Part shown: positions 18,553 to 64,000 of the stretch, in pieces | Layout of the letters: the number at the start of each line of letters is the position of its first letter | How positions within the stretch are numbered: position 1 is the first letter of the stretch | DNA from: a virus | IMG/VR virus record: IMGVR_UViG_3300050821_007134 | Span: 32,001-96,000 of that record | Length of the DNA: 64,000 nt | Strand: one strand, 5' to 3' | Notes under the pieces: model-generated | What the model was told of the DNA's origin: nothing | Seen by the model: only the letters and a program-made list of their open reading frames with translations | Database searches by the model: none | Position numbers and translations under genes: made by a program

Positions 18553-18800
18553 GTAAAGTGATTAGCATTTTCACAAAGAAAGAATTGAAAGAATTACCTT
18601 TTCAAGAGGATGCCGCATTAGAAATTATTAAGTATGTCTTGAGTTACAAAGAGGATAATTTCCTTAAGATTTCAATGGCTGAAAGACTTATTCTTGACTC
18701 AATACTTAGGTACGTGGCCAATGCATCGGGCACTAATCCTAATCAGCTCATGGTCGATGCTTTACAAGAAATACTTCCCACGTTTGGAGATGCATCGTGA
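18549..18800 (+). CDS. Hypothetical protein
   Basis: ATGA coupling. Confidence 0.65.
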   Translation: MSKVISIFTKKELKELPFQEDAALEIIKYVLSYKEDNFLKISMAERLILDSILRYVANASGTNPNQLMVDALQEILPTFGDAS

Positions 18801-19087
18801 AAATATACGGACGTTTAACAAGGCAAGAAAAAGCGAAAGCAATAGACAAAGCCCTTGAAGAGCTAGTGAATTGTGTGGCCAATGGGCTAATTTCATTCAC
18901 TGGGAAATTGCAGGTTAAAATTGATTTAGCGATTAAGACAGCTAATGATAACAACATGCAATGGAGCATTCAAGAACACATCCTTGAAGTCGCCAAACCC
19001 GAGCTATTGAAACATGCTCAAGGCATTGCAGAGGACGCCACATATAAAGAGAACGGTGACTTTTTGAAAGTGTTGATGGTTGTATGA
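18797..19087 (+). CDS. Hypothetical protein
   Basis: GTGA coupling, GGAG SD. Confidence 0.65.
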   Translation: MKIYGRLTRQEKAKAIDKALEELVNCVANGLISFTGKLQVKIDLAIKTANDNNMQWSIQEHILEVAKPELLKHAQGIAEDATYKENGDFLKVLMVV

Positions 19088-19163
19088 GCTATAGAATGAT
19101 AATTGTTATGTTGCTGGCAATGGGGCTGGCAATGTTTATAACCCAAATGATAGGAGATTTAAA

Positions 19164-19451
19164 ATGAAAACCGGACCAAATAACACAGGCAAGACCGTAA
19201 TCGTGAGATACGCAAACCGAAAGCTATACAACACTGAATTGTCCAACTATGCGACACTTCCACAAGTGTTAGCACTCGGCGTTGACAATTTTATCGTGCT
19301 CGATAATAAAACTAAGAAAGACATCACGTTTGACGTTCTCATCAATGCATTGTCTGGCCACTTCCGAGATAACCCCACAGCATTTGAGACAGTGAAACCC
19401 GTTATCGTTGAAAAGCTTGGCCTCGGCGCCCCAACAGTAGCAAATAACTAA
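19164..19451 (+). CDS. PhaR-like (PHB/PHA accumulation regulator) N-terminal DNA-binding domain protein
   Basis: IVRYANRKLYNTELSNYATL...FIVLDNKTKKDIT. Confidence 0.85.
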   Translation: MKTGPNNTGKTVIVRYANRKLYNTELSNYATLPQVLALGVDNFIVLDNKTKKDITFDVLINALSGHFRDNPTAFETVKPVIVEKLGLGAPTVANN

Positions 19452-19462
19452 GGAGCCGAGCC

Positions 19463-19630
19463 ATGAAGAAAATAAATGTTACGGTCAGTCTTATTATTAA
19501 GGCTGACCCTGAGGATGAGGACTCTATAAAAGATGCCGTCTATGCCAAATTAGAGGACGAATTAGTCGATGAAACTATTGACTACAGCGTGGACGAAGAA
19601 GTTGAGGAAGAGGATGAAAGCGAAGTTTGA
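19463..19630 (+). CDS. 55-aa highly acidic protein (not in ORF track)
   Basis: AAGGAG SD; MKKINVTVSLIIKADPEDEDSIKDAVYAKLEDELVDETIDYSVDEEVEEEDESEV. Confidence 0.65.
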   Translation: MKKINVTVSLIIKADPEDEDSIKDAVYAKLEDELVDETIDYSVDEEVEEEDESEV

Positions 19631-19711
19631 TTGGTTTTTATGCATGGGGGTACTAATATTTTTACTATTTGCCTCCGTGCTCTTAAAACTAGATTTTTGA
19701 TTGGAGATGTT

Positions 19712-19966
19712 ATGAACACACTTATCGCTATAACGATATGGCTTGCAGTAGGGTTTGTATGTGCTCTTCGCTTTACTTATGTGATGAGAGTAAAGCCCTA
19801 TGCCTACTCTGATATCTTTGCCTCTATTTTTTTAAGTGTCCTAGGACCACTTCTAGCCGTAATGGGCACCTTGATAGCTGTTGCCAAGAAACTTGACCGA
19901 CCAGTATTTAAGAATGAAGGGCCAAGAGACTGGTACGAACAGTCCAAGAAACGAGATGCAAAATGA
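19712..19966 (+). CDS. Membrane protein (2 TM)
   Basis: Start revised to MNTLIAI; hydrophobic segments. Confidence 0.7.
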   Translation: MNTLIAITIWLAVGFVCALRFTYVMRVKPYAYSDIFASIFLSVLGPLLAVMGTLIAVAKKLDRPVFKNEGPRDWYEQSKKRDAK

Positions 19967-20148
19967 ACACAGATTTACTTGCTGTCAAACAAGAACTTAT
20001 TGACTCTCAGGATAAACTTATTGCTCTGCTAAAGAGTTCGATGGAAGACCGAGATGAAGTAATTAACACTCAAAAGAATTTGATCTTGGCTCAACAAGGA
20101 ATGATCGAAGTTCTAAGAGAACGCTTAACCATTCTGAGGGCCTTATGA
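19963..20148 (+). CDS. Coiled-coil hypothetical protein
   Basis: ATGA coupling. Confidence 0.6.
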   Translation: MNTDLLAVKQELIDSQDKLIALLKSSMEDRDEVINTQKNLILAQQGMIEVLRERLTILRAL

Positions 20149-20369
20149 TTACTAGACACGTATTCGTTGTTATAAATGAACAGCTTTCTTGGGGAAACCA
20201 GGGCGGCGCCTATACGGTTTTCGAATATAGGGGCGATGCCGAGAAATTCATTCACGGCCAAACCACTATGGGACATCCTGATTTAAAGGGCGACTGGGCT
20301 TTTGAAGAGAAAAACTTTAAGATCATTGAATTAATGGTCAGGGGGCGCTATGAGCAATCGAGTGACTAA
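20145..20369 (+). CDS. Hypothetical protein
   Basis: ATGA coupling. Confidence 0.6.
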   Translation: MITRHVFVVINEQLSWGNQGGAYTVFEYRGDAEKFIHGQTTMGHPDLKGDWAFEEKNFKIIELMVRGRYEQSSD

Positions 20370-20670
20370 AACTTTAACAGTAGAATTAAATTCTGGGAAG
20401 TCTTTTGAAATTGAAGTCACGGCAATTGGCGAGTATGATAATAATTGTGGCTCAGACGCCGATGGTAATAGAGGTACATCGGGATGGACCGTAGATAAGT
20501 TTGAATTTGATTTGCCAAAAGTAGACGAGGACACGAATGTTCTCACTCTTGATGAATTGCACGAGCTAGACATCGCAATTCACAAAGAGGCCCTGAAAGA
20601 AGAGTGGGAGTTTTCACAGGAAGAGGATTGGGATAACTATAAAGACTATGAACTTGGAGAGGACATATGA
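20350..20670 (+). CDS. Acidic hypothetical protein
   Basis: G.DADGNRG motif, D/E rich. Confidence 0.7.
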   Translation: MSNRVTKTLTVELNSGKSFEIEVTAIGEYDNNCGSDADGNRGTSGWTVDKFEFDLPKVDEDTNVLTLDELHELDIAIHKEALKEEWEFSQEEDWDNYKDYELGEDI

Positions 20671-20951
20671 AAAAGAAAACTTATATGGTCGCTATACAAA
20701 GAACTTTTAAAGTCAGTGGTCTGGTATTCTACGAAGCACTCACTACAAGCGCTAAGGCCGCTGTAAAAGAAGCTAAGGCTCATTATAAAAAACACAAAAT
20801 CGAAATAGATGAGGAAATAGAAGAGGATGCTAAAGAAACTGGCGGTATTGGAGATGCAGGCGAAGCAGAGATATATTCTATTGGAATGGCCAGTCAATAC
20901 CACTCGGACGCCGAATGCAAGCTATGTAAAAAATCTAAGGAGGCCGCATGA
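20667..20951 (+). CDS. Hypothetical protein
   Basis: GAGAGG SD. Confidence 0.65.
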   Translation: MKKKTYMVAIQRTFKVSGLVFYEALTTSAKAAVKEAKAHYKKHKIEIDEEIEEDAKETGGIGDAGEAEIYSIGMASQYHSDAECKLCKKSKEAA

Positions 20952-25736: not shown

Positions 25737-25945
25737 AATACGGTATCTATGACACACAGTCTGAAAGCTGGGTTAAACGCGGTCTTGTTACGACCCTAAA
25801 AGAAGGCCTATACATGACAATCGACAAATCAGAAGCTTTGGGCAGTGAAAGCAAAGAATTTGTAGAGGATGTCTTTACTCAATTGGGAACACACTTTAAA
25901 GACCGTCCCCTTGTACTGCAAGGGCTGGAAGTAAGAGAACTGTGA
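25733..25945 (+). CDS. Hypothetical protein
   Basis: ATGA coupling. Confidence 0.6.
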   Translation: MKYGIYDTQSESWVKRGLVTTLKEGLYMTIDKSEALGSESKEFVEDVFTQLGTHFKDRPLVLQGLEVREL

Positions 25946-26472
25946 AAACTATTTTTTTGATTATCCTGTTAAGCTCTATAGCTCAGGCCAAAGACTCTTT
26001 GGAAGTCGTTGGCGGCAGTCTGACCTATCACTTAGAAAGTAGCTCTGATGGGCGCCCAATGCCCTACGATCACACTTTAACACCAGACCACGAACTTATA
26101 GACAATCCCTTATTTGGCCTTGGATGGGTCCACCAAACCAAGGACGACTACTATTGGGGCGCCAAGCTATTCGGGGGCGAGAACTCTGTTGGTCAGCCCA
26201 TGACTGGACTTGATGCGTCATTCGGCGCCGTCTATGGAGGTTGGTTCATTGGTGTCGTTGGCGGGGGCTATGTTCAAAACAATAAGACATTTGAGAGTGC
26301 TGGAGTCATACCGCCCAGCATTGCTGAATTCGGTGACACCGGCCTTGTTCCGATCATTGGGGGCGAAGCCAATTATAGAATCAATTTATGGGGTAACTCC
26401 TATTTGAAGTGGAATAACCTTTTGACTCCAATGTTGTACAATATGAGCTTATCCATAGGATTTGACCTATGA
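25942..26472 (+). CDS. Outer-membrane beta-barrel protein, PagP-like
   Basis: Signal peptide; SLTYH, NPLFGLG, ENSVGQP, GVVGGGY; amphipathic strands ending LSIGFDL. Confidence 0.55.
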   Translation: MKTIFLIILLSSIAQAKDSLEVVGGSLTYHLESSSDGRPMPYDHTLTPDHELIDNPLFGLGWVHQTKDDYYWGAKLFGGENSVGQPMTGLDASFGAVYGGWFIGVVGGGYVQNNKTFESAGVIPPSIAEFGDTGLVPIIGGEANYRINLWGNSYLKWNNLLTPMLYNMSLSIGFDL

Positions 26473-27011
26473 AAGAAAAACTCGCGAATTTAGGCCCGAA
26501 AAGGGGGAGGGGTACCCCTCCAAGTACCTGTAATCATTGGACCCCAAAAACTGTATTTTCACCTTTCAGACTGTATAGGTATGTTCTTTATAGAGAATGG
26601 GACCCAACACTTGAAACCATAGCTTTTATTGGCCTAAATCCCTCCACAGCCGATGAGACTCAAGACGATCCAACCATTAGGCGCTGCATTGGCTTCGCGA
26701 AAAAATGGGGATACGGAAGTATCTTGGTCGGAAACATATTTGCATTAAGATCTACGGACCCAAAGAAACTATATAAAAGCGACAATCCTGTAGGTTATAG
26801 AAATGATTACTGGCTCGGCGAGATTTACAAATATGCCAAAACGACTGTTGCATGTTGGGGAACTCACGGCGCCCTAAATAGACGACACAACGATGTAAAG
26901 CAAAAACTTGGTGTAATGCACGTTTTTGGCTTTACCAAAGAGGGATTTCCTAAACATCCTCTATATTTAAGTAGTAAAGCTAAAATTCACGAATGGTGGG
27001 AGACAAGCTAA
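26469..27011 (+). CDS. DUF1643 family protein
   Basis: YRYVLYREW, FIGLNPSTAD...DDPTIRRC, NIFALRSTDP, PKHPLY. Confidence 0.92.
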   Translation: MKEKLANLGPKRGRGTPPSTCNHWTPKTVFSPFRLYRYVLYREWDPTLETIAFIGLNPSTADETQDDPTIRRCIGFAKKWGYGSILVGNIFALRSTDPKKLYKSDNPVGYRNDYWLGEIYKYAKTTVACWGTHGALNRRHNDVKQKLGVMHVFGFTKEGFPKHPLYLSSKAKIHEWWETS

Positions 27012-31903: not shown

Positions 31904-32121
31904 ACTTGAAAAATTCTATTTTAAATCCACCCAACACTCAGGAAAAGAGTGAAGCCGAGCACAGAGATTTAATAAACACTGCTAACACTGGCGTTCAAGC
32001 TATCAGAACTCTTCAAAAGAAATACGGCGAGCAAACCGTAATTATAGAACAAGATGGGTTCAGGCAGACACTAAGCGATGAAGGCGAAGTAGAAAACATT
32101 TCATTCGAGGCAAAGCGATGA
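31900..32121 (+). CDS. Hypothetical protein
   Basis: ATGA coupling. Confidence 0.6.
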   Translation: MNLKNSILNPPNTQEKSEAEHRDLINTANTGVQAIRTLQKKYGEQTVIIEQDGFRQTLSDEGEVENISFEAKR

Positions 32122-44981: not shown

Positions 44982-45845
44982 TTAACTCTTTTTTAAAATA
45001 TCAGATTTCTTGATTTCTAAAAATTTAGCCAGTTTGGCCACACCTGTATTTTTCCCCGCGATAGCTTCGGATTTATCCATCCAATTCTTCTCGGCCTGTG
45101 ATCTAGGTAACGTAGTACCTTCGCCTTTTGCTTCAGAATTACCTGGAGCTTGTTTTGAAACTCCCATATCATCTGACTTCTGTACGTTCGAAGGAGGAGG
45201 AGTCGCAGACGGTTGTCCAATACTTTGAGCACCCTGAGCAATTTTAGCTGGTGTGATTGCTCCGCTAGCGGCAGCATTTGCAAAGTTGGCGCCGAAGTCT
45301 TTCTTCAACTCGGCCTTTTCCATTGGTTCATGTCTATATGTGTCAGAAGCATGAACTATTTCGTGGCTGTGTAAATTCTTAATTCCAATATTTCGAGCAT
45401 GTTCGGATACTTGATTTGGTGAAGCTTCGTGGGTGTGATATCCGTGTTCTTTCATGCTGTGGTGAACTTTATCAACTAAATGCTGTCTTACGTGTTCACC
45501 GAATTTATTTTTGCTTGATTTTTCAAGCTCTTCGGACTTTCTTACTTGGCCTTCCATTCCATATTTCTTGGTATTGTAAGGTCGAGCGCCGGGGGCCGCA
45601 TTATTGCCTTCGGCATTTTCTTTTGGATTTGTTCTAGGGTCTTGTTGTTCCCTAACGCGTCTTTTTCCCACGATATCTTCTCTATCGAGTTCTTCTTGGT
45701 GTCTGTGGGGAGCCTGAGTACCTAATTTCTTAGAATTCTCAGATTCATATTTCTTCAAAGCTGGGAAATTCTTAATAAGTTCAGTGACCTTAGCTGCTAC
45801 TGCTTCGGCTGCCTGTTTTGCTGTATAACGCTTTTCTTGTGCCAT
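44982..45845 (-). CDS. Low-complexity late protein, putative internal head protein
   Basis: Many [LIMV]xK[SA][ED] motifs; late motif at 45869-45875. Confidence 0.65.
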   Translation of the reverse strand: MAQEKRYTAKQAAEAVAAKVTELIKNFPALKKYESENSKKLGTQAPHRHQEELDREDIVGKRRVREQQDPRTNPKENAEGNNAAPGARPYNTKKYGMEGQVRKSEELEKSSKNKFGEHVRQHLVDKVHHSMKEHGYHTHEASPNQVSEHARNIGIKNLHSHEIVHASDTYRHEPMEKAELKKDFGANFANAAASGAITPAKIAQGAQSIGQPSATPPPSNVQKSDDMGVSKQAPGNSEAKGEGTTLPRSQAEKNWMDKSEAIAGKNTGVAKLAKFLEIKKSDILKKS

Positions 45846-45879: not shown

Positions 45880-46242
45880 TTATGACTTACACTTGGCCAT
45901 AAAATCTCTTAGTTTTCGAGCACTTGCATGTTTTACGTCTTTAAAGTCCTCGGATTTAAACATTCCTGGAGACTTTGGGGTTTTCGATATAGTACTTTGC
46001 TCGCCCGATTTCATTGGATTAGCCACGGCTGTCGGAGTTGGCTTAGGTGAAAGAATTTGTGCTTCAGATTTAAAAATCTCTTGCATGAATTCTTCAGCTT
46101 TTTCAAGACCTTGTGACTTTTTCATCCTATGGAATATGAAGTTAGCCAGAGCCCATTTAGGTTCTCCGCCACTTTTACCGGCAGCTTCTTTAGCTTCCGA
46201 CCATTTCTTTTCATCTTTCGGGGTCTTTACAAATCCTGGCAT
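45880..46242 (-). CDS. Late protein, putative internal head protein
   Basis: MKKSQ, LEKAE, IFKSE, MFKSE; AATCTTA 5 nt before ATG. Confidence 0.65.
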   Translation of the reverse strand: MPGFVKTPKDEKKWSEAKEAAGKSGGEPKWALANFIFHRMKKSQGLEKAEEFMQEIFKSEAQILSPKPTPTAVANPMKSGEQSTISKTPKSPGMFKSEDFKDVKHASARKLRDFMAKCKS

Positions 46243-52960: not shown

Positions 52961-53482
52961 TTATTTACCCGTAATTTTAACCTTTGACGCATTGCAAGAC
53001 ATTGCCTTCTCGGCAGTTGCCCCGGCCAGTGCCCGGCGGAATTCTTGCGGTGCAGTAACACCATCAATAACAATTGAATCTCTCTCGAAATGGCTCATTA
53101 CAGAGGCCACCTTAGCGTTATTTTTGGTAATGTGAAATTCCACCATGCTACCATTTTGGATAGAATAAATACCATGACCAGACTTCCTAAGATCCTCGCT
53201 CAACCAATGAGAATGTTCATCGACGATGGAAGAATCAGTCATTCCCTCGCTTTTCATCAAAGCTGGCTGAAAGTCTGGGTATTGTTTTCCAAGGTTGAAC
53301 TTTACAACAGCTGGATGACTCCCTGCGGCTAAAGCTTCTTCCCTGTATTTGCCTTTTGGTTTACCAATGGCAATCCAGAAACCTCCGCGAGTGCGGATCA
53401 TTTTAACTGGATGTTTGTCGAGCATACCAGCATCTTCTATATGTTCAATTTCTTTTTCAGTGAGAATTGGCTTGTCGCTCAT
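52961..53482 (-). CDS. Hypothetical late protein
   Basis: AAGGAG SD; LMKSE motif. Confidence 0.7.
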   Translation of the reverse strand: MSDKPILTEKEIEHIEDAGMLDKHPVKMIRTRGGFWIAIGKPKGKYREEALAAGSHPAVVKFNLGKQYPDFQPALMKSEGMTDSSIVDEHSHWLSEDLRKSGHGIYSIQNGSMVEFHITKNNAKVASVMSHFERDSIVIDGVTAPQEFRRALAGATAEKAMSCNASKVKITGK

Positions 53483-55005
53483 TTCTTAACTCCTTGATTA
53501 TAGGCATTATTTATTTTTATTACATGCCAGTGTTTACTAATGTCTTGTTTGTCGTGTTGGGCCTTATAAGTACCGCGAATTCCTTCTAACCATGCATATC
53601 CTATTTTCTGCGGATCGTTGCCAAAATGTTTTTCAAGTCTTTTCAAATGCTGCTTAGCAATAGTGTCTTCTAGGCCTGGATTGTCTCTCATGAAGTTTTG
53701 CAATTGGGGACCGCGAAGGATAGTGGCTTTTTGATATTTGTGCTTTAGTTCTGGATGAAGGCTTATTGTTTCTCGTATGATATTTGGCGTTAAAGCATAC
53801 TTACCGTATGCTTGTTCGCCAGAATGTAATCTCTTGTGATGTGTGTTCTTGCCGCCGCTACTTTCGACAGAAGCGATAGTTCTAAGCATGTGTTCTGGAC
53901 TGTAAGTGGGAGCCTTGAATGCCGGGGCTTGCATAACCTTTGGAGCCGCGTCTACACTTTGGGGAGCGGCGGGCTGACCAATTAAAGAAGAAGCGGCGAT
54001 CATTGCGCCTGCGGCTTTAGTCTTAAAGCTTTTTTCCATGTCTTCTGTAAATTCATATATGGTATTCCCGGCGCCTTTTTCAACACTAAGGTTATCGAAA
54101 TGGACTTCATCCGGAGATAGACCCTCCTTCTTTATTTGGTCATAAAGAGGCTTGTCGATTGTAACGTGTGTGAAATATTCTTTATATTGCACTCCGTCAA
54201 TAGTGTCATAGAATTTTTTGTATTCTGGAGGGCATCCGTCAATCATGAGCATGAAATAATCGGCATCGCTATAATCAGAATGATGAATTTTGGTATGGAA
54301 TCTTAAAGCATGAGGATCTGGTTTTGTAATTCCAAGTCGTTTGACTTTGGCTTTGATATCTTCGATATCCATCTTTTGTTTTTCGTCAAAAACCTTAAGA
54401 GACATATGAAGAGGAATATCATCCGTTAAGAATTTACGACCTTTGATGGTTACTTTGAAAAGTACATCTCCGCCAGATTTTGCTTTCTTTCGATATTCAT
54501 TGCAAACACCAGTTCCGATTTTTTCTCTTTTAGCAATATCGGGCTCGATAAGTTGATTGTTAATAGTCTGTTCGGGAGATCTCTGTACTCCACTTTGACC
54601 TTCGCCTTCAGCACCAGGATTTGATCGCATATCGCGATCTCCAGTTTCAACCTTTAGTACTTTGATGCCATAGGCAGCGAGTTCTTTAGCCCATTTGTCC
54701 TGCTCTTCTTTATGGCAAACTACGTAGGCAGAATCAATAAATTCCCTACTTTTTTGAATGATGACATGATCTGGGTATTTCATTGCAAAAAGTTCAACGG
54801 CTCCAGGAGGACTGGACGATTGATCTAAAATGATTTTACAATCAGATGGAATTTCCATGACAGGATTGTAAGTATCATTGTTTATGACAGTATCTCCGGC
54901 GCTACCACTAGGAGCAGACCCCGACTCAACGATATCGCTAAGTTCTTGAATAGAATCTTCCAATGTGCGTCTCATATGTTTATGCAGCATGATGCCACTT
55001 CCCAT
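53479..55005 (-). CDS. Multidomain protein: Acb1-like 2H phosphoesterase plus lytic transglycosylase
   Basis: LHMSL (H200) and YFTHVTI (H280); C-terminal IASVESSG...AYGKY...YAWLEG. Confidence 0.7.
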   Translation of the reverse strand: MGSGIMLHKHMRRTLEDSIQELSDIVESGSAPSGSAGDTVINNDTYNPVMEIPSDCKIILDQSSSPPGAVELFAMKYPDHVIIQKSREFIDSAYVVCHKEEQDKWAKELAAYGIKVLKVETGDRDMRSNPGAEGEGQSGVQRSPEQTINNQLIEPDIAKREKIGTGVCNEYRKKAKSGGDVLFKVTIKGRKFLTDDIPLHMSLKVFDEKQKMDIEDIKAKVKRLGITKPDPHALRFHTKIHHSDYSDADYFMLMIDGCPPEYKKFYDTIDGVQYKEYFTHVTIDKPLYDQIKKEGLSPDEVHFDNLSVEKGAGNTIYEFTEDMEKSFKTKAAGAMIAASSLIGQPAAPQSVDAAPKVMQAPAFKAPTYSPEHMLRTIASVESSGGKNTHHKRLHSGEQAYGKYALTPNIIRETISLHPELKHKYQKATILRGPQLQNFMRDNPGLEDTIAKQHLKRLEKHFGNDPQKIGYAWLEGIRGTYKAQHDKQDISKHWHVIKINNAYNQGVKK

Positions 55006-56200
55006 GTACTATGTTTTCGGGCAGTAGACCAGCTTTTTGATCTGCGTAAACTGTCTTTTGAGGATTTTTTCTATTTTCTTCGCCATGTTTGCCAAAATTG
55101 ACGGTATTATTTTGTCCCATCGTTTCTGTGGCGAGTGCCTTTTGTGCTTCAGGAGAATACATTTGTTTGTGAGTTAAGAATGCAGAATGTTCACCCTTAG
55201 GACCAAAAGTATGTCCTTCTTTGGCATGACCAAAATAATCGTGTACTATTCTGAATACGTCATTGGCAAGTAGTGGGCTGCCTTCATGGAGAATCTTTGT
55301 AGGTGTCAATAGAGGATGATCCTTCGGAGCACTTCCTTCAGAACCAAATCCACCTTCTGTTGGGAAAAACCAGAGATGATTGTTATTATGGATATCGTGC
55401 ATTACGTCTTTTGAATTTTTATAAGGGTTGGCCATTCCCGGTTTGATCTTTGAAATCTTCAATCCACTATTCTTAATATGGTTGAACTGATCCATAGTTT
55501 CATTGATCAGGGCGCCATATGCTTTCTGAACAGCTGGGTCTCCGGGACTGTGCTTCATTCCTTCATATGAACTAGCTATTTGTTTACCGTGTTCTGGATT
55601 AACATTGACAGCTGGTGTAGGAGATAGTTTTATCCCTTTACTTTTGGCATAACTCTCCGCAACTTGTTTTACTTTATTGTCAGGTTTCAGACCAATACTA
55701 GGAGTAGGTTGAGCAGCAGATTGAATTGGTTTTTCTTCGGCCTTTTTCATATCTTCATTGAAGTTATGAGTAAATCGTCCGGCGCCACCAGGAAGAGTTG
55801 TATAAAAATCTTTTGGCTGTTGAGCATGCCAGGTAGTTCCTTGTCCCATTACTTTCTGCCCAGCTTTTTCTCCATGATGATAACGCATTTCATGTTTCTT
55901 TCCAGTAGAATAAATGGAACTCTCTTGACCCAGATTAGCGGCTAATGAATGAAGTTGTTCGGCTTGTTGGGGAGAAATTTTGTAAATGATTATTGATTTT
56001 TCTGGTTTTCCATAATGACCCATAACTTCATGGGCGTCGTACTGAGCACCCTTAAGATGTTTCAAAACAGCTGCATGATCTAGATTTAACTTGTTTTGTT
56101 CTGGGTATATTGGATTGTCAGCGGACATAAGGAAATGCGGTCCGGAAATGCTTTTCCGGTGATCTTTCATCGCATTTAATATGCCTCTATCAACGCCCAT
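54980..56200 (-). CDS. Multidomain protein: SAM-lyase/DUF3293-like domain plus HDxxGH domain
   Basis: LMSADNP, VMGHYGKPEKSI, LAANLGQESSIY, DFYT; then FRIVHDYFGH..GE...ATETMGQN. Confidence 0.6.
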   Translation of the reverse strand: MGVDRGILNAMKDHRKSISGPHFLMSADNPIYPEQNKLNLDHAAVLKHLKGAQYDAHEVMGHYGKPEKSIIIYKISPQQAEQLHSLAANLGQESSIYSTGKKHEMRYHHGEKAGQKVMGQGTTWHAQQPKDFYTTLPGGAGRFTHNFNEDMKKAEEKPIQSAAQPTPSIGLKPDNKVKQVAESYAKSKGIKLSPTPAVNVNPEHGKQIASSYEGMKHSPGDPAVQKAYGALINETMDQFNHIKNSGLKISKIKPGMANPYKNSKDVMHDIHNNNHLWFFPTEGGFGSEGSAPKDHPLLTPTKILHEGSPLLANDVFRIVHDYFGHAKEGHTFGPKGEHSAFLTHKQMYSPEAQKALATETMGQNNTVNFGKHGEENRKNPQKTVYADQKAGLLPENIVHGKWHHAA

Positions 56201-59914: not shown

Positions 59915-61315
59915 TTATGATCCACCAGGGGTCAATTGACCAGTGATGTTCTCAAGAAGAACGTTTTTGCGAGGTTGGAAAACAGCGAGAGACAAGAATC
60001 TGAAATGTGCTTCGGGGAGCGACAAGTCATTGATTGCAAGTTTCAATTTGCTGTAAGGAGCCAATTGAGCGATGCTCATTGTGTTTCCTTGAACGAGGAA
60101 CCCTGTAACAGATCCTTCAGATCGGTTACCGAGGTCGGTAAATACTGGGTTACCAATCCCTTGAGAGATCTTACCGATGAACTTAGCAGAAGCGGCAGAT
60201 CCACCAGCACTTGAACGATAAACGTTGTAGTACTGAGCGCCAGCAACAGCGGTAATGGTAACGGTAACTTTATCACCGGCCAAAGCAACTGCTTGCGAAG
60301 CGGAAGGGGAGGGGAGCGACTCACCACGGATACTTACGGCGGTTACATAATAAACGTATGTAGCAGCTTGGAGTAATGATCCGGCAGCACCGGCATCAGC
60401 AAGAGCAGGAGCAGCGGGTTGATTTGGGCTGCCTGCGCGAGCGCGTGCGGGGCGGGTTTTACCAGAGAGGAAACGAGAAGCTTCTAGCGAAACAATGGCA
60501 CTTGATGTCCATTGAGTTCGTAAATGAGCGCCTGAGGCCTCTTGAGGAGAACCGGCGAGCATAATACGTTCTTTCGCATGAGCGATTTTGTTATATTGAC
60601 TGAGGGTGATAGGATCGAGAACGAGTCTGTCAGCAGCACCCATGTTCATTGCTGAACGAACCGAGCTATCTTCGATGATGGACTGTGCTAATGCACCGCC
60701 AACAGAGAGGATAACAGTTTGGTCTGAACCGTACTCAGCAAACATCAAGTCTTGAGTGTTTGATTGAGCATCGGATTGACGAACTTGTTGATCGAGACCG
60801 ATCATGTTTGGAACTTTTGCGACTGCAAGAGGGTTACCATCGAACACCCCAGCATTGGAGAAATCTGATTGTCCTCGGAAGAGGTCAAATTCGATATCGC
60901 CAGCAAGCTTCATAGCTGCGTCAGCTGAAGCTCTATCTTCGGCTTTAACACCGTCGAAAGCACCAATCATATTGGCAGCAACAGTGACTCGACGAGTCGT
61001 GCTGTAATATGACATGGGGACTACTGCACGAACATAATTCGTGGTGTCTTCTTCGCCGATTCCGCCTTCAAATTGAGCAGAACCTCCGAAAATACCATAG
61101 TCAAGTTGACGGTTAAACTGGTGAAGCTGAGACTTAACGTCTTTGCTTGGCAGCATTTTTTGCAACTTGATATGACTGTCATCGAATGTAACATTATGCA
61201 TTACGGGGGAAAGATCTTCCACCATAAGTGCAGCACCTTGAGCCAATTGGCCGGGAGCCGCGTTATAGCTACCTGCTTCTAGGGCTTTCATAAGTGACTG
61301 AAGTTGTTCGATCAT
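59915..61315 (-). CDS. Major capsid protein (SPO1/Twort-like) with FN3-like insertion
   Basis: GAALMVEDL, F.EGG, IEFDLF.G; YVYYVTAVS..GES.PS...YNVYR insert; P.K.VL..NI. Confidence 0.9.
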   Translation of the reverse strand: MIEQLQSLMKALEAGSYNAAPGQLAQGAALMVEDLSPVMHNVTFDDSHIKLQKMLPSKDVKSQLHQFNRQLDYGIFGGSAQFEGGIGEEDTTNYVRAVVPMSYYSTTRRVTVAANMIGAFDGVKAEDRASADAAMKLAGDIEFDLFRGQSDFSNAGVFDGNPLAVAKVPNMIGLDQQVRQSDAQSNTQDLMFAEYGSDQTVILSVGGALAQSIIEDSSVRSAMNMGAADRLVLDPITLSQYNKIAHAKERIMLAGSPQEASGAHLRTQWTSSAIVSLEASRFLSGKTRPARARAGSPNQPAAPALADAGAAGSLLQAATYVYYVTAVSIRGESLPSPSASQAVALAGDKVTVTITAVAGAQYYNVYRSSAGGSAASAKFIGKISQGIGNPVFTDLGNRSEGSVTGFLVQGNTMSIAQLAPYSKLKLAINDLSLPEAHFRFLSLAVFQPRKNVLLENITGQLTPGGS

Positions 61316-61345: not shown

Positions 61346-62260
61346 TTATTTAAGCAGATGGCTAATAGTTTTAATGTCGGCACCATTTAAATAAAATTCG
61401 TTGATCGCATCTCGGTCAGCTTTGGCCAAGGTAGGATCAGCGGACTTTTTCAATAAAATCGGGGTAATTTCACTCTTTGTGAGTGGCTGTACTTCTGCTC
61501 CAGCGCCTTCGCCTTTGGCAATTACATCAATTGATGTAATAGCTTTTTGGGGAGGAGGAGTAGTTTTCTCAACAAACTTCGTTAAGAAAGCGGTTACTGC
61601 GTTAAGTTGATTCTTCGAATCTTCATTTTCTTTTTTGAGAGACTCGATTTCAGATTTCAAAAGATCGGCTTCTGACTTATTCATTTCGCTTCCTTTGTTA
61701 AGTACAGGTTGAGGTGTTTCTGAATCAGCGGACTTAGCGCCCGGCGATCCCTTCGGGGGACATTTCTCAATTTCTGCCTTATTCAAGACAGGTTGAGGTG
61801 TTTCTGAATCTGAGGATTTAGCCCCAGGAGAACCCTTCGGAGGGTTTGCTTCGATTTTCCCAGTTTCGGTCTTATTAAGAACCGGTTGGGGCGTTTCAGA
61901 AGCTTCAGATTTGGCTCCAGGTGAACCTTTGGGAGGGCAAGCGTTCATTTCTCCGCCATTGCCGTCTGCTTTTGCGAGATCGCCATCGGTCATTGCCTTT
62001 GCGATTGACTCATGATGAGCTTTTAACTCACCCTTCGACATAGACTTATACATTTTATGCATAGCCTTTTTGTCTTCTTCGTCGTAATCACAATCCTCAT
62101 TCTTTTCAATAGCGGTCGTTTCCGACTTAACTACTTCAGCGGAGGGCTCTGATTTTGCAAGCGGGGCAGCGGCCTCGCCTTCAGCTTTCTTAAGCTCTAC
62201 TGAGAATTCTTTTTCGATTTCCGAAACAAGACTCAATAGTTGCTGTTCTGTGTAATGCAT
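61346..62260 (-). CDS. Putative scaffold protein
   Basis: Upstream of capsid; charged, many xxK[SA]E motifs, 3 internal repeats. Confidence 0.7.
   Translation of the reverse strand: MHYTEQQLLSLVSEIEKEFSVELKKAEGEAAAPLAKSEPSAEVVKSETTAIEKNEDCDYDEEDKKAMHKMYKSMSKGELKAHHESIAKAMTDGDLAKADGNGGEMNACPPKGSPGAKSEASETPQPVLNKTETGKIEANPPKGSPGAKSSDSETPQPVLNKAEIEKCPPKGSPGAKSADSETPQPVLNKGSEMNKSEADLLKSEIESLKKENEDSKNQLNAVTAFLTKFVEKTTPPPQKAITSIDVIAKGEGAGAEVQPLTKSEITPILLKKSADPTLAKADRDAINEFYLNGADIKTISHLLK
61695..61940 (-). repeat. Three intragenic repeats PPKGSPGAKSxxSETPQPVLNK
   Basis: Seen in translation; codons diverged. Confidence 0.85.
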
Positions 62261-62997: not shown

Positions 62998-64000
62998 ATG
63001 GCCACTCTAATTCACGGGATTGCCGCTTCAGAAAATATTGACTCTTCGGGCGAAAGAATCATCATTGCCGGTATGGATATTTCCAGTCTTGAAAAAGACG
63101 GAGTTTTCAACTGGGAACACAAATCTGACCAACCAGCTCAAGTAGTTGGTAAGATATTGAAAGCAAAGAAGATTTTCTCAGAAAAAGACTGCGAAAATGA
63201 GCATGAAAAGCGCTTTTGGGAAAAATGTGGAGTTCCATTCGTCTATGTAATGGGCGAACTTTTGGATGACTATAAAGAATCAGCCAAAGAAGTGGCCGGT
63301 ACCTTCCGATACGATCATGATCACAAAGACCGCGACGAACGCAGTATTTCGAACTTCTCTATAGAAGGGGCTAAAATCAACAAAGTAGGAATGGACGTTC
63401 CTAATTCTATTGCGCGCAAGGTCACGATTACTGTCCATCCCTGTAATAAAGTGGCCATCGCCACCCTTTACCCTACAGATAAAAAATCACATTCCAAAAA
63501 AGATGATATAGATTCACTATTTAAGACCGAAAGTACGGAAATTGAACTTTTCAAAGCAGAAGATCTCGATTATGGTAAAATGACCCTTTCTGAGGCCATG
63601 GCCAAAAAAGAAGATCCTGCCGTTCATGCAAAAGCCTTGGGAGTTGAACCTATGAAAAAAGAAGATATTGCCGGTACGACTGGCGCTCCCGCCAATGTCG
63701 CGCAACGCGCCCTTCCAATGATTAAAGCCGGTTCGGCCCCCGCGAAACCCAATTTAAACATAGTTGGCGAAAATGGCCATAAACTTGGTACGACTAAGGG
63801 CGGCCATGATATTCATAGTCACAAACGGGTCCACGAATATGGTCCAATGCATCCTAATGATCACCTTGAAGCTGCGAATATGCACTTTAATGCTGCTCAG
63901 GCCGCCCGAGACCCAAAAACAGGATCTCATCATATGGATAAAGTCCGTCTTCATATGGAAGCACATAAAACTTCCTCTCGTAGGGAAGAAAGACTTCATC
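62998..64000 (+). CDS. Prohead protease with long C-terminal extension, partial (not in ORF track)
   Basis: Manual translation MATLIHGIAASENIDSSGERI..G.D...FNWEH...GEL...FSIEG...VTITVHPCN; open to the window end. Confidence 0.85.
   Translation, partial: MATLIHGIAASENIDSSGERIIIAGMDISSLEKDGVFNWEHKSDQPAQVVGKILKAKKIFSEKDCENEHEKRFWEKCGVPFVYVMGELLDDYKESAKEVAGTFRYDHDHKDRDERSISNFSIEGAKINKVGMDVPNSIARKVTITVHPCNKVAIATLYPTDKKSHSKKDDIDSLFKTESTEIELFKAEDLDYGKMTLSEAMAKKEDPAVHAKALGVEPMKKEDIAGTTGAPANVAQRALPMIKAGSAPAKPNLNIVGENGHKLGTTKGGHDIHSHKRVHEYGPMHPNDHLEAANMHFNAAQAARDPKTGSHHMDKVRLHMEAHKTSSRREERLH

Follow-up and report, generated by a model that had tools for sequence, protein, structure and literature searches.

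A 508-residue phage protein uniting a 2H phosphoesterase with a lytic transglycosylase: a putative packaged and processed precursor of an Mx1-like myovirus

Virus record IMGVR_UViG_3300050821_007134 is a complete sequence of 171,073 bp, and the window analysed here is a stretch of 64,000 nucleotides belonging to it (positions 32,001 to 96,000 of the record). The subject of this report is one translated open reading frame of its minus strand (53479..55005, 508 aa, P0001), and it can hardly be doubted that the encoded protein is a fusion of a 2H phosphoesterase with a lytic transglycosylase. On balance it is taken to be a compact “polyvalent” virion protein of a soil myovirus akin to Myxococcus phage Mx1, which the prohead protease would cut and which would then be ejected into the host. 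From the folds, conserved catalytic residues, operon position, synteny, domain shuffling and motif distribution described below we infer packaging, cleavage, ejection and the kind of substrate. Packaging and cleavage are probable, the degradation of a host signal by the 2H domain is a tentative proposal, and an activity directed towards RNA is considered unlikely. Degradation of cyclic nucleotides by the same domain is a putative but plausible activity.

Residues are counted here from Met1 at position 55005, as in an earlier note made on this DNA from its letters and reading frames only. The likely true start is Met11 (ATG 54973-54975, immediately past the stop of the upstream gene), since the nearest homologue with this architecture starts at that residue. 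By translating sub-ranges of 53479-55005 all of the features which that note had named were located within the 508-aa frame, and in the precursor a small N-terminal domain precedes the 2H domain, the border motif comes next, and behind it lie a hydrophobic helix, a linker and the transglycosylase domain. The full-length AlphaFold model, built with the homologue alignment, comprises three confident domains (residues 55-121, 160-327 and 368-508) joined by low-confidence linkers. The first is a small alpha/beta domain (residues 55-121; 54643..54843, minus strand) with a predicted local distance difference test score (pLDDT) of 83-96 and low occupancy in the alignment, as it is common only to the 7 closest homologues; residues 1-160 had no Pfam match and gave no usable structure-atlas lead (template modelling score, TM, <= 0.41). 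A search over 5.8 billion proteins returned 120 homologues, all of them metagenomic and several from contigs of 158-173 kb, and most are about 350 aa long and cover residues 160-508 only. Nothing usable was found for the whole 508-aa protein in Pfam, in PHROGs, among PDB sequences (phmmer) or by tblastn against 50,697 phage records.

The middle domain (residues 160-322; 54040..54528, minus strand) adopts in the model a 2H phosphoesterase fold in which both catalytic histidine motifs are conserved. Translation confirmed the first motif, H200-M-S (residues 200-202; 54400..54408, minus strand; family consensus H-x-S/T-L-K-x-F), the second, H280-V-T (residues 280-282; 54160..54168, minus strand; family consensus H-V/I-T/S-I/V-D-K), and their spacing of 80 residues, just as the earlier note had read them, together with the surrounding strings YFMLMID and YKEYFTHVTI. 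Each motif is followed by a hydrophobic residue (HMSL at 200, HVTI at 280). Position 200 is histidine in 115 of 119 homologues and position 202 serine or threonine in 116 (about 96% conservation), with corresponding counts of 116 of 119 for H280 and 118 for threonine or serine at position 282; to judge from the alignment, these motifs are not a product of chance. Modelled alone, the domain reached a pLDDT of 92.4 and a predicted TM score of 0.86, and each of the catalytic histidines opens a central strand (E43-49 and E123-126 in domain-model numbering), as the 2H fold predicts. When this model was compared with the PDB by Foldseek, essentially all confident rows were 2H phosphoesterases: the structural score was 8.2 for Deinococcus cyclic phosphodiesterase, 7.7-7.8 for LigT and archaeal LigT-like proteins, about 7.5 for Usb1 and AKAP18, 6.5-6.9 for the penguinpox cyclic GMP-AMP (cGAMP) phosphodiesterase and a Burkholderia phage phosphodiesterase, and 6.1-6.3 for Acb1, which occupied ranks 38-42 of the 43 2H matches, about 2.7 Z units below rotavirus VP3. 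Once these 43 entries are past, the score falls to 3.6, and the assignment of the fold is therefore solid. A literature search on the BCSR5 phosphodiesterase structures found no paper.

Curated profiles hardly see this domain. The target protein had no match at E<=1 to the 2H families PF13563 and PF02834, PF13563 (2_5_RNA_ligase2) was matched by 9 of 95 relatives (best E 0.018), and 2 of 36 distant long members reached E 3.6e-5. Tblastn with the 2H domain alone against the phage records found nothing, and the family profile run against PDB sequences gave spurious ubiquitin matches only, apart from YjcG (E 0.29). Among 1.84 billion representatives, a profile made from the 2H domain collected only 183 clusters, in which many proteins are 600-2284 aa long and carry the domain at any position. 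By these profile comparisons, it is a 2H family, with about 180 clusters of sequences, which present Pfam and PHROG models largely miss.

The C-terminal domain (residues 367-508; 53482..53907, minus strand) is, according to the model, a Slt-type (family 1) lytic transglycosylase-like fold. The SLT-like strings reported in the earlier note, VESSG with E381 and AYGKY, are present, and E381 (53863-53865), the catalytic candidate, stands at the position of the catalytic glutamate. Model residues 368..508 were aligned to residues 490..624 of the Pseudomonas aeruginosa Slt chain, and by the offset of the aligned ranges, which assumes an ungapped first helix, E381 falls on residue 503, the site changed in the entry named “inactive mutant E503Q”. 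The pair E381-S382 is conserved in 120 of 121 sequences, and the same Glu-Ser pair occupies the catalytic position in Slt70, Cj0843, P. aeruginosa Slt and virion-borne relatives such as phiKZ gp144. The Pfam SLT profile (PF01464) does not match the target and matches 12 of 121 relatives (best E 1.6e-4); scanned over the whole genome, it has its sole match in another, canonical SLT gene. The target differs from family 1 transglycosylases in an additional invariant glutamate, E446, and in the hydrophobic helix and cleavage-type motif that precede the domain; it carries GLMP-like and AW-x-G motifs where family 1 enzymes presumably have GLMQ and AYNxG.

Between the two enzymes lies the part of the protein on which the proposal of processing is built. 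The sequence M-E-K-S (residues 323-326; 54028..54039, minus strand), which the earlier note had read together with an Ala/Pro linker, is followed in the translation by the segment AAGAMIAASSLIG and a Pro/Ala linker. The family consensus of this border motif is L/M-E-K-G/S, and it is proposed to be a prohead-protease site, with cleavage after the lysine. K325 is invariant in 121 of 121 sequences and is thus better conserved than the catalytic histidines (115-116 of 119), while it sits in an otherwise variable, predicted-disordered region, where the pLDDT drops from 95 to 54 from residue 321 onward. The segment AAGAMIAASSLIG (53977..54015, minus strand) starts at residue 331 and forms an Ala/Gly/Ser-rich, weakly hydrophobic helix preceded by lysine residues, a candidate membrane-inserting segment with a 17-residue Kyte-Doolittle mean of 1.16 (0.9-1.7 in sampled homologues). 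The Pro/Ala/Gln-rich disordered linker after it (53908..53976, minus strand; pLDDT 40-49) varies in length among homologues, which have modules inserted in it. In homologues P0069, P0113 and P0117 an insert of about 45 aa, PY.SEAQRRWAHT..GKKALGG...HEWDEATKGK, is placed between the K-motifs of the linker that joins the 2H and transglycosylase domains.

The more general form of the motif, hydrophobic-x-K-(S/A/G), often with glutamate next, marks inter-domain borders in the homologues examined and in the protein that occupies the syntenic slot in Mx1. In the latter it occurs at residues 129 (before the GNAT domain), 606 (before the ART domain), 1061 (before helix plus transglycosylase) and 1251/1258 (behind the transglycosylase domain). 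The border motif of the gene upstream of the target is EDMKKAE; in homologues in which the product of that gene is fused to the target architecture the motif lies near residues 150-165 and once more ahead of the helix, and homologues with longer linkers contain additional small modules flanked by FGKSE, KLAASE and LEKG-type repeats. Beside the capsid gene a scaffold-like protein (61346..62260, minus strand, 304 aa) carries 7 or more copies of hydrophobic-x-K-(S/A/G)-E, and its counterparts in Mx1 and in relative L003 also carry the border motif repeatedly. The major capsid protein (phrog_752; 59915..61315, minus strand) has the N-terminus SLMK-ALEAG, found in L003 as well, and the corresponding sequence of Mx1 is ELRK-AMEAG. 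When counted as hydrophobic-x-K-[GSA]-[ED], the motif appears 26 times in 5,867 aa of the head-neck module and 22 times in the other 44,734 aa, an enrichment of about 9-fold (Poisson p ~1e-16). The motif is predicted on these sequence grounds to be a recognition site of the head protease, and the proteins that carry it would, on that reading, enter the prohead and be cut there. As the scaffold-like protein and the N-terminus of the capsid protein carry this motif too, a cut made by the head protease is suggested rather than self-processing. The idea of the earlier note that one precursor supplies two products agrees with the invariance of the motif at the border between the domains and with its presence in these two proteins.

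A candidate for the head maturation protease adjoins the scaffold-like gene. It is a plus-strand reading frame of 504 aa (62998..64000, with the frame running to 64512, past the window end), of which only the first ~200 aa resemble the 1239-aa “putative prohead protease” of Mx1, with 38% identity to the ~200 N-terminal residues of the latter; phrog_1028 is matched weakly (E 3.3e-4).

The position of the target gene is in agreement with a virion role. It is found within a long minus-strand operon that has the scaffold-like and capsid genes (phrog_752) at one end and the tail sheath gene (phrog_279) at the other, and the major capsid protein shares 52% identity with its counterpart in Mx1 (169.6 kb), SPO1-like phages being more distant. 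Two other contigs of about 170 kb have a homologue in the same slot, directly after conserved proteins of 150 aa and 276 aa, and in both of them this slot precedes an mCpol-domain protein by a few genes. The protein encoded in the syntenic slot of Mx1 (L001 18690-23129; OR576727.2 24404-28843; annotated “NUDIX hydrolase”) has 1479 aa with GNAT, ART-PolyVal and NUDIX domains. Its residues 1060-1210 align with residues 322-475 of the target, that is with the motif, helix and transglycosylase (30% identity, E 4e-9), and its order is likewise ELSK-S, Ala/Gly helix, Pro/Ala linker and a transglycosylase domain with LES...GLKP. The motif, helix, linker and transglycosylase are therefore regarded as what the slot keeps constant, and the enzymes N-terminal to them as variable cargo.

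The cargo itself is extensively shuffled. The upstream gene encodes 406 aa (54980..56200, minus strand) in two domains split by EDMKKAE, overlaps the target by 26 nt, and had no Pfam match and only an unnamed PHROG (phrog_3170). Its N-terminal domain (residues 1-150) is fused to the N-terminus of a 2H-transglycosylase protein in at least 10 homologues (47-71% identity), and one homologue consists of both domains of the upstream gene plus the transglycosylase; one member of the homologue alignment A1 matches Pfam S-AdoMet_lyase (E 1.6e-4). The downstream gene (52961..53482, minus strand, 173 aa, 4-nt overlap with the target) had no family match. In homologue P0119 a relative of its product (60% identity) makes up the C-terminal half and directly follows a 2H domain and the border motif FYKSE, so the downstream protein belongs to the same shuffled cargo set. 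Among 36 long 2H members scanned, the partner domains were GNAT (12), NUDIX (11), VTC (5), ART-PolyVal (4) and PI3/PI4-like kinase (4), and matches in BFVD include 2H domains within large actinophage proteins annotated as structural or capsid-morphogenesis proteins.

All these properties are reminiscent of polyvalent proteins, in which several unrelated enzymatic domains are combined in one polypeptide encoded among virion genes (PMC5512222). The occurrence of 2H modules in such phage proteins, fused to MuF or portal domains, was described by Iyer et al. 2017 (PMC5512222), who predicted that these modules are packaged and act as RNases or degrade defence-related nucleotides. The target has at least two unrelated effector domains, is located among virion genes and belongs to a mosaic of shuffled relatives. 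It combines 2H and transglycosylase modules, the former being one module of the class and a lysozyme/transglycosylase module also occurring in it; the class-defining ART-PolyVal domain is carried by the Mx1 protein of the same slot, and the partners of the 2H family (GNAT, NUDIX, ART-PolyVal, kinase) match the vocabulary of the class. In contrast to typical polyvalent proteins, the target is much smaller, with 508 aa and three folded domains, and MuF, portal and zincin peptidase domains were not detected in it; its borders carry the hydrophobic-x-K-(S/A/G) motif common to the scaffold-like protein and the capsid N-terminus, and its 2H family largely escapes Pfam and PHROGs.

The following course of events is proposed. 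The precursor would be made late, together with the head and neck proteins, and taken up by the prohead, where the head maturation protease would cut it at the invariant (L/M)-E-K|(G/S) (residues 323-326), after K325. Two products would arise in this manner: a soluble fragment composed of the small N-terminal domain and the 2H phosphoesterase, and a second one beginning with the Lys-flanked Ala/Gly helix, after which come the Pro/Ala linker and the Slt-type lytic transglycosylase. Both fragments would be ejected during infection, the transglycosylase fragment opening the peptidoglycan on entry while its helix may lodge in the inner membrane, and the 2H enzyme acting in the cytoplasm ahead of any phage gene expression. 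Its substrate would be a phosphodiester, most likely a nucleotide signal of host immunity (a cyclic oligonucleotide or a 2'-5'-linked one) and less likely RNA; the signal is favoured because of the nearby mCpol protein, the fusion of the family to other small-molecule enzymes and the prediction of 2017.

Several points weigh against this explanation. In contractile-tailed phages the enzyme that cuts the wall is usually placed at the tail tip, not in the head. The hydrophobicity of the helix AAGAMIAASSLIG is under the usual cut-off for a stable membrane span. The site MEKS-F lacks the acidic +2 residue that is seen at the scaffold sites, and the border motif also occurs once within the folded 2H domain (VEKGAG), so the motif alone is insufficient to define cleavage. 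The candidate protease had no Pfam match and no match among PDB sequences, its only PHROG match being the weak one, and a literature search on Mx1 found no genome or virion paper. As for the substrate, the top structural neighbours of the 2H domain are 2'-5' phosphodiesterases, cyclic phosphodiesterases, RNA-end enzymes and cGAMP phosphodiesterases with similar Z values, and the substrate is therefore not readable from the fold.

Two other identities of the 2H domain have to be weighed. The earlier note named it “Acb1-like”, after strings of T4 Acb1 (LVLVLD and DYTPHITL), both of which are really in T4 gene 57B; in 2H enzymes generally, however, each lobe is laid out as a strand and a helix followed by the HxT strand. 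The comparison with Acb1 and LigT structures which it called for upheld the 2H fold and did not place Acb1 nearest, as it is among the weakest of the 43 2H matches. [quoted passage not shown] Nevertheless, the target has no match to Pfam Acb1 (PF23474), which is touched by only 2 of 95 relatives at E 0.022, below significance, and hhalign of the family profile against T4 Acb1 gave a probability of just 0.8%. The best 150 listed of the 183 clusters mostly exceed the ~170-aa 2H domain in length (up to 2284 aa) instead of being standalone proteins of Acb1 size, and the domain is absent from Mx1 and present in a single copy in the target genome. The data already suggest that the 2H domain falls outside the Acb1 clade, and true orthology is very improbable. 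The other possibility is an RNA-end or RNA-cleaving enzyme, either a LigT/ThpR-like 2',3'-cyclic phosphodiesterase for tRNA repair after host anticodon nucleases or a Usb1-like RNase that attacks host RNA at entry. The weak Pfam matches of the relatives are mostly to 2_5_RNA_ligase2, the phage encodes RNA ligases, and RNase activity is one of the options put forward for polyvalent 2H domains by Iyer et al. 2017 (PMC5512222). End healing of RNA is already provided in this genome, because it contains a Pnkp gene (AAA_33 kinase and HAD_PNKP phosphatase, 121 bits) adjoining a T4 Rnl1-type ligase gene (67 bits), at G000 18613-20712 outside the window, as well as a second RNA_ligase-family gene (G000 25890-26717) with an endonuclease VII gene at its side and an HNH gene nearby; RtcB and PNK3P profiles had no matches. 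Judged by their family matches, Pnkp and Rnl1 form a complete T4-style tRNA repair pair. The ligase genes are about 65 kb from the target, in another gene block, and the 2H domain studied here never adjoins ligases, nor are polyvalent-type 2H domains associated with RNA ligases (Iyer et al. 2017, PMC5512222). The operon of the relatives of this phage also carries the mCpol nucleotide cyclase protein, which points to nucleotide signalling, and an RNA enzyme appears a poor, if still arguable, candidate.

For the C-terminal half, it can be supposed that the protein is a membrane-anchored endolysin of the signal-arrest-release (SAR) kind, in which the Ala/Gly helix is the signal-anchor, the transglycosylase is exported late in infection into the periplasm, the 2H domain stays in the cytoplasm without being packaged, and the K motif is a topological or stop-transfer feature. 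A helix followed by a linker and a muralytic domain resembles the arrangement of SAR endolysins, and here a Lys-flanked, weakly hydrophobic Ala/Gly/Ser helix directly precedes such a linker and domain; the positive residues on its N-side would give an N-in, C-out topology, and a role in lysis would suit late expression. The helix is, however, internal, 325 residues into the protein, not N-terminal, and the gene lies in a conserved slot between head-completion genes and in no lysis cassette position, although no dedicated search for holins was made. The same module ends the 1479-aa GNAT/ART-PolyVal/NUDIX protein of Mx1, and the border motif is common to the scaffold-like protein and the capsid N-terminus. 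Moreover, lysis does not depend on the target gene, because other lysin candidates are encoded elsewhere in the genome, outside the window: a canonical SLT protein of 152 aa (G000 164727-165185, plus strand, 63 bits), which adjoins a 2287-aa reading frame, and an M15_3-like peptidase of 202 aa (G000 98834-99442, minus strand; E 6.5e-4, below the cut-off). Such an endolysin is accordingly held to be quite unlikely, and separate lysin and RNA-repair genes weaken the endolysin and the tRNA-repair explanations alike. The SLT protein and the M15_3-like peptidase, as genes separate from the target, are candidate lysis or tail enzymes.

The packaged and processed precursor can also be imagined as part of something larger. 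In that case, the capsid would be loaded with a pre-made enzyme set against host nucleotide signalling, to which would belong the 2H phosphodiesterase, the mCpol cyclase encoded six genes downstream and, as a fusion partner of the target protein in relatives, the SAM-lyase-like (S-adenosylmethionine) domain, all of them freed from polyproteins at one shared motif by the head protease and injected with the DNA. The 2H enzyme would destroy signals of CBASS, of type III CRISPR or of other cyclic or 2'-5' kinds from the first second of infection, decoy-sensing systems, for instance Panoptes, could be kept silent by the cyclase, and the transglycosylase fragment would double as a delivery device for crossing membrane and wall. 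Taken as a whole, this extended scheme is regarded as doubtful.

The closest functional analogy to the packaged 2H enzyme proposed here might be offered by rotavirus VP3. VP3 is a virion core protein and its 2H domain destroys a host immune nucleotide signal, 2-5A (2'-5'-oligoadenylate). The C-terminal 2',5'-phosphodiesterase of VP3 (PDB 4ye2, 5af2, 6o3v) is a minimal 2H domain of a size similar to that of the target. In contrast to the target, it belongs to a eukaryotic dsRNA virus and is fused to a capping enzyme instead of a wall-degrading one, the identity is just 15-16%, and no relation was detected at the sequence level. With Acb1 (T4 gene 57B; phage FBB1 Acb1, PDB 7t26/7t27; PF23474) the target has in common the 2H fold, the two HxS/T motifs and the phage origin, and the chemistry of cutting cyclic oligonucleotides could, by analogy, be common as well. 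There is no profile-level similarity between the two, and Acb1 is a standalone protein (152 aa in T4), whereas the 2H domain of the target is embedded in a precursor from a late structural operon. Head-packaged and protease-processed effectors are also known, for example T4 Alt and internal proteins, the Dar proteins of P1 and the ejected proteins of SPN3US and phiKZ-like phages; as late products they enter the prohead, are trimmed at short motifs by the head protease and, once injected, act before phage transcription (PMC10052503; PMC5512222). None of the characterised effectors of this group bears a 2H phosphoesterase, as the putatively packaged target does. The head-protease motifs of T4 and phiKZ end in glutamate, whereas the candidate motif of the target ends in lysine.

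A 2H module in a packaged phage polyvalent protein (published in 2017) and virion-borne transglycosylases were already known. New here are a 2H family that curated profiles hardly see, its direct pairing with the helix, linker and transglycosylase in a protein of about 500 aa, and the shared K-motif, through which this protein would be tied to the maturation of the capsid in Mx1-like phages. Signal-destroying enzymes known from phages, such as Acb1, need to be synthesised in the infected cell first; if the proposal is true, a capsid-borne phosphodiesterase would act before phage gene expression, as rotavirus VP3 does in animal cells. The locus is a small and tractable case for the 2H-polyvalent prediction of 2017: it comprises three domains, the candidate cleavage site is single and clear, and Mx1, a cultured relative, is at hand for the biology around it. 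The candidate head-protease motif of Mx1-like phages could be used to predict packaged proteins, and the conserved module of motif, helix, linker and transglycosylase appears to stay constant in a cargo slot that is otherwise highly variable.

Some minor observations were made on the surrounding genes. In the scaffold-like protein a unit of about 28 aa (PPKGSPGAKS...SETPQPVLNK) with K-(A/G/T)-E at its end occurs 3 times in tandem, and these repeats look like spaced protease sites. The C-terminal extension of the candidate protease contains VALKKGMAES. A 1262-aa reading frame (genome positions 128865-132653), which was first guessed to be the prohead protease, was ruled out, as it is DNA polymerase III alpha. 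In Mx1, the C-terminal region of the slot protein has an LTDGNHR string reminiscent of ParB-like domains, and the gene next to it (619 aa) has GNAT and PI3/PI4- or HipA-like kinase matches. Just upstream of the sheath gene of the target phage two small proteins (44982-45845 and 45880-46242, minus strand), for which there was no family match, carry 4 and 2 copies of the K-motif (KSEELEKSS, PMEKAE, WMDKSE and RMKKSQGLEKAE) and may be further processed or packaged products.

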